A DNA stretch of 37,009 nucleotides, taken from the sequence record OQ703770.1; one strand, given 5' to 3'. Numbering within the stretch: the first letter of the stretch is position 1; the number at the start of each line of letters is the position of its first letter. The translations under genes were made by a program, and so were the position numbers. Positions 13,967-14,264 of the stretch are shown here, piece by piece. The stretch is from Escherichia phage PGX1. The notes beneath the pieces are model-generated. The model had not been told where the DNA came from. It was given only the letters and a program-made list of their open reading frames with translations, and ran no database searches.

Positions 13967-14139
13967 TGATTCGTGACACTGTAACAATTCCTCGTGATGT
14001 GTGGAACGATGTTAACGCATATATTGAGTTCCTTGAGGGTCGCCTGGCGAAGCTGAATGCTCTTGAGGCCCACGGTGTAGACAATTGGTGTGGCTATGAT
14101 GACGCTGTAGCTGAACTTTTTACGGAGGATGACCTATGA
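13966..14139 (+). CDS. 5.9: Gene 5.9-like protein (57 aa; the T7 homolog inhibits RecBCD)
   Basis: MIRDTVTIPRDVWNDVNAYIEFLEGRLAKLNALEAHG...; the N-terminal TIPRDVWND block resembles T7 gp5.9 and the rest is acidic and divergent. ATG overlaps the 5.7 stop. Confidence 0.65.
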   Translation: MIRDTVTIPRDVWNDVNAYIEFLEGRLAKLNALEAHGVDNWCGYDDAVAELFTEDDL

Positions 14140-14264
14140 GCCTCAGAGGTTTAGTAGCTTCGAAGTTAAAATGTCCTAAATGTGGGCAGCACCCTATATT
14201 AGGTGGTTATGCTGGTTGTTCCTATTGGTGGTGTCTAAAGTGTGATAAGGAGGTTAAAGAATGA
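14136..14264 (+). CDS. Hypothetical 42-aa zinc-ribbon protein (CxxC-x19-CxxC); no T7 counterpart recognised
   Basis: MSLRGLVASKLKCPKCGQHPILGGYAGCSYWWCLKCDKEVKE*; SD ggagga; stop overlaps the gene 6 ATG. Below the 60-aa cutoff of the ORF track. Confidence 0.5.
   Translation: MSLRGLVASKLKCPKCGQHPILGGYAGCSYWWCLKCDKEVKE

Follow-up and report, generated by a model that had tools for sequence, protein, structure and literature searches.

A conserved minigene between genes 5.9 and 6

We found that a short open reading frame between genes 5.9 and 6 of Escherichia phage PGX1 (OQ703770.1) is, judging from how its sequence has diverged among phages, a true and strongly conserved protein-coding gene. 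This minigene occurs at no fewer than six different gene junctions, always flush with the stop and start codons of its neighbors. The explanation that we propose, and in which we place somewhat more belief than doubt, combines a true-gene cassette, coupled expression, recombination at Shine-Dalgarno (SD) and ATG motifs, and a dispensable accessory binding protein as the product.

The window, meaning the whole stretch of DNA that was analyzed (37,009 nucleotides), belongs to a T7-like phage and contains ten T7-consensus promoters, six of which are perfect. The local gene order is DNA polymerase, an HNH endonuclease in the 5.3 slot, 5.5, 5.7, 5.9, the minigene, and the gene 6 exonuclease. The minigene, present once in the window, spans positions 14136..14264 and, like all features described here, lies on the + strand. 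It runs from an ATG at 14136 to a TGA at 14262-14264 and consists of 42 codons plus the stop, encoding the 42-aa product MSLRGLVASKLKCPKCGQHPILGGYAGCSYWWCLKCDKEVKE, a predicted Cys4 zinc-ribbon mini-protein. A preliminary description of this DNA had reported the reading frame and two CxxC pairs, both of which are present as claimed. The four cysteines (C13, C16, C33, and C36) are invariant across copies. The first zinc knuckle, C13-P-K-C16, is encoded at 14172..14183, while the invariant Y30-W31-W32 and the second knuckle that follows it, C33-L-K-C36, are encoded at 14223..14243. The peptide of the window has a fifth cysteine, C28, which is not conserved and is replaced by Ser, Ala, or His in other copies.

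The minigene overlaps the genes on both of its sides. Upstream lies gene 5.9 (13966..14139), a chimeric member of the RecBCD inhibitor family (PF25708, E 8e-19), whose stop codon overlaps the minigene start as ATGA at 14136..14139. The SD of the minigene (GGAGG, 14124..14128) is located within the final codons of gene 5.9, 7 nt 5' of the ATG, in agreement with the good SD noted earlier. The overlap between the minigene stop and the start of gene 6 (5'-3' exonuclease, 14261..15163) had also been recognized, and corresponds to an ATGA at 14261..14264. T7 has no gene at this site, as had been stated; its gene 5.9 overlaps gene 6 directly, by 14 nt.

The reading frame had been called unannotated, which is correct in that it is uncalled in most other records, but not for PHB19, F5M1D, and vB_EclP_26, in which it is annotated as a hypothetical protein. 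The nearest relative is the ortholog from Escherichia phage vB_EcoP_PHB19 (QHI00755.1, UniProt A0A6B9RPP3), which occupies the same 5.9|6 junction. The proteins UNA05465.1 (F5M1D) and XBW52431.1 (vB_EclP_26) are orthologs of the same length and with the same motifs, and their entries are uncharacterized. Our literature search found no paper containing the motifs of the peptide. Neither the minigene nor its region is mentioned in a preprint on an accessory-gene screen (10.1101/2023.04.06.535777), and a search for a gene named 5.8 or 13.5 retrieved only the Endo VII gp13.5. Hence, this gene is known from a few GenBank records as a hypothetical protein, and is absent from family databases and from the literature searched.

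Evidence for a protein-coding gene

We searched 50,697 phage records with the peptide by tblastn, keeping matches with E <= 4e-6 (weaker matches were noise). Homologs were found in 31 records, with identities of 52-98%. Whether the reading frame is conserved in related phages that carry the same interval had been named as one point on which its reality hangs, and the PHB19 copy, at the same junction, is 97.6% identical. Roughly 20 metagenomic contigs (from IMG/VR, from ENA, Logan, and NCBI contigs, and from JGI metagenomes) contained further copies. In addition, the family accounts for seven clusters in a protein set of 5.8 billion clusters, and running HMMER exhaustively over 1.84 billion representatives returned four family matches. 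The family is confined to lytic podophages that infect Enterobacteriaceae, namely Studiervirinae, Molineuxvirinae, and one lineage of Zobellviridae. No bacterial or archaeal relative was detected among 185,579 species, each represented by one genome, and a bacterial or prophage origin was rejected on this basis.

Between minigene lineages, synonymous divergence is saturated (pS 0.4-1.0) and pN is 0.06-0.28, and pairs with an estimable dS displayed omega values of 0.08-0.32. Among 21 copies, the codons of the four cysteines are split roughly 50:50 between TGT and TGC (11:10 at both positions of the first knuckle). Five different codons encode Leu3 across copies, and synonymous variation occurs at every Cys, Tyr, and Lys codon. 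Meanwhile, several residues are fully or nearly invariant, namely M1, S2, L3, (G5), L6, C13, K15, C16, (G17), P20, and G27, followed in the C-terminal half by Y30, W31, W32, C33, K35, C36, E39, and V40. The N-terminal motif MSLxGL is conserved in the family. All copies are basic (pI 7.7-9.3) and contain 4-7 aromatic residues within 40-46 aa. The synonymous freedom of the Cys and Leu codons, together with the low pN, indicates that the constraint acts on the protein.

This pattern bears directly on the reading that the minigene is no gene at all, but a reading frame that arose by chance, or else a spacer or RNA element separating 5.9 from 6. The ORF is indeed very short and, as mentioned above, uncalled in most GenBank relatives. 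Nevertheless, conservation of amino acids against saturated synonymous sites effectively refutes such a reading, and the searches for RNA and regulatory elements gave it no support either. The module matches no Rfam family, and its RNA fold is unexceptional (z = -0.53). It contains no T7-type promoter, the nearest being at 15285, and scans for sigma-70 promoters and terminators stayed at chance level, with nothing within the module. We see practically no chance that the minigene is not a gene.

Predicted fold and relationship to known zinc ribbons

The preliminary description had proposed a zinc ribbon and had named structure prediction as a check. Two AlphaFold (AF2) models, built from alignments of 2 and 8 sequences, agree with each other. 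Both predict a low-confidence N-terminal helix turn followed by a three-stranded antiparallel sheet (strands 21-25, 28-33, and 38-40) that bears both knuckles, with Y30-W31-W32 on the second strand. Mean pLDDT was 76.5 and 74.0, with a core of 81-89, and the invariant N-terminus had low pLDDT in both models. The structural neighbors of the models are zinc ribbons without exception, with non-significant scores. By predicted fold, then, the peptide is a Cys4 zinc ribbon, as proposed.

Assignment to a known family gave no match in Pfam, PHROGs, or NCBIfam, where only generic zinc-ribbon scores below threshold were obtained, and a sequence search of the PDB found no significant match. The only other CxxC-x15/16-CxxC motif in the window belongs to the zinc-binding domain of the gp4 primase, and kinship with this ribbon was rejected (hhalign probability 4%). 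Kinship with the HNH endonuclease of the window and with the Endo VII of the gp13|gp14 slot (see below) was likewise rejected (0.2-0.7%), and the peptide matched no nuclease family, be it HNH, GIY-YIG, LAGLIDADG, or Endo VII. Given the absence of a family-database match and the rejected relatives, these peptides constitute a small orphan Cys4 ribbon family.

Two known ribbons are similar enough to deserve comparison, and each leads to a distinct reading of function. The first is Lar (PF14354), also a Cys4 ribbon of small size from phages or prophages, whose first knuckle likewise reads CP(x)CG. The minigene product could thus be a truncated relative of the Lar zinc ribbon of the Rac prophage, countering type I restriction. 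Lar_restr_allev scored weakly in P0005 and in two of the 11 members (15-17 bits, E 0.008-0.02), the CPKCGQxPTL knuckle recurs in a metagenomic Lar-domain protein (hhalign 89.5%), and the structural neighbors in BFVD include a Lar protein (E 0.6). The test for this family was made with the Pfam model. The scores, however, fall well under the Pfam gathering threshold of 28.6 bits, and the hhalign alignment does not bring the second CxxC into register (spacer of 16 vs 19, a difference of 3 residues). A knuckle of the CPxCG type is a generic feature of zinc ribbons. Moreover, the peptide is about 20 residues shorter than Lar and stops 6 residues after the second knuckle, so it is missing the C-terminal WN(R) helix that is present in the two Lar-family ORFs of L044. 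We regard descent from Lar as very unlikely.

The second is Zn_ribbon_Top1 (PF01396), with which the peptide shares a CPxCG ... aromatic-aromatic-x-C pattern on a beta-hairpin. It differs in that the second knuckle is CxxC where Top1 has a longer spacing, and in being a stand-alone protein of 42 aa instead of an enzyme domain. A metagenomic protein with PF01396 repeats (P0007) was the only repeated non-family match in the HMMER pass, with an hhalign probability of 76% to the repeats; no family member matched the PF01396 model itself at E <= 1. The minigene product might therefore be a nucleic-acid-binding mini-protein, a ribbon for ssDNA or RNA resembling the C-terminal ribbons of topoisomerase I, which would aid or modulate phage DNA replication, recombination, or mRNA function and not inhibit a host protein. 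In favor of this possibility are also the basic character of every copy, the invariant Tyr-Trp-Trp patch on the beta-hairpin, and the fact that five of the six genomic contexts lie among genes of DNA or nucleotide metabolism. We deem it unlikely, yet deserving of real weight.

Gene junctions occupied by the minigene

The six contexts are as follows. In the window, in PHB19, and in two Logan contigs, the order is 5.9, minigene, 6. The minigene is found between 5.7 and 6 in TM1, 216Ecol046PP, RCIP0213, and several contigs. In Przondoviruses, the order becomes 5.7, minigene, 5.9, 6, and in a variant of this arrangement (Ninurta, Citrof5, and NJ2) a 120-aa ORF stands in the place of 5.9. A fourth context, within the virion-core module, is the junction between gp13 and gp14, as observed in SH5, Dev2, vB_EclP_26, and seven more contigs. 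In Molineuxvirinae, the minigene follows a dNTP-diphosphohydrolase-like gene and precedes a 64-aa ORF and the ligase. Finally, in a Zobellviridae phage related to Citrobacter phage CVT22, it lies between a RimK-type ATP-grasp gene and a 66-aa ORF. Copies cluster by site and by lineage. Kayfunavirus harbors two minigene lineages at two sites, never together in one genome (each record has the minigene in one place).

Most copies lie between 5.7 and 6. This concentration means that part of the apparent mobility could come from cassettes of the 5.9 type shuffling around a stationary minigene. Such an account cannot cover the gp13|gp14, Molineuxvirinae, and Zobellviridae sites.

The distribution of the minigene is also informative about its proposed connection to gp5.9. 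From the proximity of gp5.9, the preliminary description had derived a possible anti-nuclease or anti-defense role, which can be phrased as the minigene product being a partner or back-up of gp5.9, that is, a further factor against RecBCD or nucleases that is expressed alongside it. The T7 region from 5.3 to 6 is rich in small inhibitors of host proteins (gp5.5, gp5.7, and gp5.9), and the minigene is located in this region in the window. It is coupled to gene 5.9 by stop/start overlap in the window, in PHB19, and in two Logan contigs, and lies directly 5' of the 5.9 homolog in Przondoviruses. This adjacency is not conserved, which leaves the link to gp5.9 and RecBCD unsupported. The occurrence of the minigene on either side of 5.9 indicates that its position next to 5.9 in the window is incidental. 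No 5.9 gene neighbors the minigene in TM1, 216Ecol046PP, RCIP0213, and L025, and in Kayfunaviruses, among others, the minigene either lacks an adjacent 5.9 or is flanked by the virion genes 13 and 14. Elsewhere its neighbors are dNTP-diphosphohydrolase-like and ligase genes, or the ATP-grasp gene of a Zobellviridae phage. The two proteins resemble each other as small accessory genes of the same genome region that are present or absent among relatives, but differ in sequence and character. T7 gp5.9 mimics DNA, being acidic and helical; the peptide, by contrast, is a basic ribbon (pI ~9) and gives no match to PF25708, the model matched by the upstream ORF. We attach very little credence to a partnership with gp5.9.

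Empty sites and cassette ends

Empty alleles are documented for three sites, namely 5.9|6, gp13|gp14, and the ATP-grasp junction, in which near-identical phages (96-98% flanks) miss precisely 122-125 bp. Phages PZJ0206, E-3, and ZCEA1 encode gp5.9 proteins up to 94% identical to that of the window, directly abutting gene 6. Compared with these empty junctions, the window contains an extra block of 125 bp (14136..14260) with ATGAGC at both bounds. At gp13|gp14, the site is empty in SFPH2 (flanks 98% identical) and in SH4, which miss 124 bp, the insertion being at the gp14 ATG. SH4 and SH5 are of the same species and were isolated on the same host strain, C. freundii CF3; the site is filled in SH5 and empty in SH4. 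As for the ATP-grasp junction, CVT22 is empty and has a single copy of AAGGATGTGTTATGA, while in the filled contig the cassette stands between exact 13-bp repeats, GGAGGTGTTATGA. A third allele of gp13|gp14 is a free-standing Endonuclease VII gene, gp13.5 of EcoDS1 (PMC8861465). The existence of this allele indicates that gp13|gp14 is a true insertion hotspot.

From these comparisons, the cassette can be defined as a start-codon-to-start-codon unit of about 119-125 bp that has neither promoter nor terminator. In every copy, an (A/G)TGA overlap joins the upstream stop to the minigene start, which is ATG except in Przondoviruses, where it is GTG. In all 21 copies examined, the SD is placed within the final codons of the upstream gene. 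At the other end, the SD of the downstream gene is formed by the final conserved codons, K/R-E-V (AAGGAGGT). In the window, these are codons K38-E39-V40, AAGGAGGTT (14247..14255), which serve a dual use and contain the SD of gene 6 (GGAGG, 14249-14253). Copies end in (A/C)(A/G)GGAGGT, or in AAAGAGGT in the case of Molineuxvirinae, 5-8 nt before the next start. The downstream start overlaps the minigene stop by 4 or 8 nt, except in two cases in which it lies further downstream. At Glu39, all 21 copies use GAG, although codon choice varies at the other Glu and Lys positions. The fixation of this codon fits a second constraint, the SD function.

The cassette of the window is bracketed by an imperfect direct repeat, with a left copy at 14121..14144, TACGGAGGATGACCTATGAGCCTC, and a right copy at 14246..14269, TAAGGAGGTTAAAGAATGAGCGTC. 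The two 24-nt copies are spaced by 125 nt and are 71% identical, including an exact ATGAGC, a similarity that is partly forced by the consensus of SD and start codon. L040 displays a bracketing repeat of 16 nt at 94%, with 13 exact bases, and elsewhere the exact bracketing repeats amount to 3-7 bp plus the GGAGG motif. At three filled sites, only direct repeats of SD and start codon were present, with no terminal inverted repeats. Accordingly, a transposon or MITE-like element was rejected. The cassette in the window has a lower GC (0.41, GC3 0.33) than its flanks (0.49).

A cassette that separates, at three sites, genes lying side by side in related phages, and that differs in composition from its surroundings, is reminiscent of phage morons. 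In the classical concept of Hendrix and Juhala, a moron is a dispensable extra gene between otherwise adjacent genes, with its own promoter and terminator. The minigene cassette lacks both and uses instead the stop/start overlap and the embedded SD. Its size, too, is much smaller. What sets it apart from known small accessory genes and morons is the lack of promoter and terminator, the double role of its coding ends as translational junctions for the neighboring genes, and its recurrence at many junctions in two phage families.

Free-standing homing endonucleases, such as gp13.5 of EcoDS1 and the HNH in the 5.3 slot of the window, are another class of optional genes at similar junctions. The minigene, in contrast, encodes no nuclease domain and shows no resemblance to these genes. 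HNH genes are found within 1-1.5 kb of the minigene in the window, TM1, L025, and F5M1D. A further reading makes the cassette a harmless, selfish passenger, spread by recombination or by co-conversion beside the cuts of homing endonucleases, whose peptide would serve the cassette itself, for instance by blocking cleavage or occupying a homing site. The patchy distribution, the precise indels, the nearby HNH genes, and the use of the gp13|gp14 slot by an Endonuclease VII gene would all be compatible with such a passenger. On the other hand, the cassette encodes no nuclease or recombinase and has no inverted repeat, and many carriers have no endonuclease gene nearby. Furthermore, the peptide has been under strong purifying selection over saturating synonymous divergence, which indicates a protein function maintained for a long time. 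We consider a selfish passenger improbable. As a separate observation, purifying selection shows that there is a function, and does not tell whether the phage or the cassette profits from it.

Proposed mechanism and function

Under the explanation that we favor, the minigene would be translated by coupling to its upstream gene, and ribosomes would be handed on to the downstream gene. Coupling on both sides would make the cassette insertable at any SD-ATG junction without upsetting expression. Gain at new junctions, as well as loss, might proceed by recombination between short GGAGG-N(5-8)-ATG(A) repeats. The exact microhomology of 3-7 bases at some junctions makes repeat recombination plausible, though unproven. 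According to the work of Studier and of Masker, T7 reportedly undergoes deletions between short direct repeats, and recombination in mixed infections is efficient.

The weakest step of this proposal concerns the product. Its architecture and distribution suggest that it may be a dispensable accessory factor that binds a macromolecule of the host or of a competitor. The putative binding surface would combine a Tyr-Trp-Trp patch, exposed on the rigid scaffold of the zinc ribbon, with the conserved, flexible N-terminal MSLxGL. Such a factor could act in host takeover or in counter-defense, with no specific tie to RecBCD. A general role of this type is plausible, since it fits the patchy presence of the minigene between near-identical phages and its accessory-gene neighborhoods.

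A bolder version, which we consider rather unlikely, is that the cassette is a minimal, seemingly autonomous mobile element of an undescribed kind. Its ends, ATGAGC... and ...AAGGAGGT-N5-8, would mimic the universal SD-start junction of tightly packed phage genes, allowing it to recombine into nearly any coupled boundary, to be expressed there, and to cross phage families. The peptide would then be the selective pay-off, for example against a widespread enterobacterial defense or against the homing nuclease of a competitor.

Small phage ORFs routinely escape annotation, and yet they are the source of many factors of host takeover and anti-defense. The minigene is a tractable case, with 42 residues, a predicted rigid fold, and six genomic contexts to compare. 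Natural knock-out and knock-in pairs are provided by SH4 and SH5 (same host strain) and by SFPH2 and SH5 (98% identical flanks). A cassette that supplies the upstream stop and the downstream SD and start context offers a way by which packed, coupled genomes may gain and lose genes while keeping expression. This is of use for understanding the mosaicism of T7-like phages, and could serve as a design rule for payload insertion in therapeutic T7-like phages.

Origin of the copy in the window

Relative to T7, the window displays a mosaic patch at about 14010..14285, delimited by sliding identity and blastn breakpoints, that is PHB19-like (93-100%). Identity to T7 is 90-100% up to ~14010 and again from ~14285. 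Within the patch lie the 3' two-thirds of gene 5.9, with a C-terminus of the Berlinvirus/Teetrevirus type, then the minigene, and finally some 8 codons from the start of gene 6. As judged from these breakpoints, the copy in the window arrived in a PHB19-like patch of ~275 bp, through ordinary homologous recombination within genes 5.9 and 6.

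Recombination around the minigene of PGX1

Gene 5.9 of the window (13966-14139, plus strand) is a chimera: it is T7-like over the first ~15 codons and from there on resembles its counterparts in PHB19, the nearest relative, and Berlinvirus, displaying 94% identity to PZJ0206 gp5.9. The recombined patch extends from 14010 to 14285, with one breakpoint within gene 5.9 and the other after the first ~8 codons of gene 6.

The T7 RNA polymerase promoter consensus had ten matches in the window (spanning 181-36532), six of which were perfect. The match closest to the minigene is located at 15285-15307, 3' of gene 6. 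Directly 3' of the DNA polymerase gene, in the slot of T7 gene 5.3, the window encodes an HNH_3 homing-type endonuclease (13139-13444, plus strand; PF13392, E 8e-19), with a second, weak match to zf-His_Me_endon. The ORF as listed begins at a TTG farther upstream, within gene 5; the true start is likely the ATG at ~13139.

Alternative contents of minigene junctions

The gp13|gp14 junction, which is filled by the minigene in SH5 and Dev2, is occupied in Kayfunavirus PDP21P1 (L038) by an Endonuclease VII gene of 133 aa (602-1003; PF02945, E 5e-28), the counterpart of "gp13.5" of phage EcoDS1 (PMC8861465). Three alleles of this junction therefore exist, one empty, one with the minigene and one with the nuclease gene. 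In the UNVERIFIED record of Shigella phage ESh23 (L006), the end of gp13 and the minigene (2001-2132) adjoin, at the extreme end of the record, an oppositely oriented terminase labelled "nonfunctional". This arrangement does not look like a seventh context of the minigene but like an artefact of assembly or permutation.

The family also occurs beyond Autographiviridae. A CVT22-like contig of Zobellviridae (L040) encodes a member at 1820-1945, lying after a RimK-like ATP-grasp gene and before a 66-aa ORF, with an amidoligase gene upstream. Citrobacter phage CVT22 itself (L045) displays the empty counterpart of this junction, at 2467.

Annotation of the family and other Cys-rich ORFs

The minigene is uncalled in most deposited genomes. 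Among the GenBank relatives, it was called only in PHB19, F5M1D and vB_EclP_26; each of those leaving it unannotated (L002, L003, L004, L005, L009, L010, L011 and L020-L023) has a visible gap of 120-125 bp between called genes. One member (P0004, NCBI) is filed as a hypothetical protein of an Enterobacter asburiae assembly. The short length of its contig (3.3 kb) suggests that it derives from phage DNA within the assembly rather than from a bacterial gene.

In Ninurta (L003, 1626-1988) and NJ2 (L007, ~2129-2407), the minigene is followed by a 120-aa ORF whose N-terminus (MSHYDCKKCG...) is likewise Cys-rich. It matches phrog_18166, of unknown function, and more weakly a PHROG labelled ribonucleotide reductase. 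Finally, a 55-kb metagenomic contig with no relation to T7-like phages (L044) encodes two zinc-ribbon ORFs of the restriction alleviation family Lar (PF14354; 1964-2695 and 3468-3668). In one of them, the knuckle is CPKCGQxPTL, as in the minigene family.
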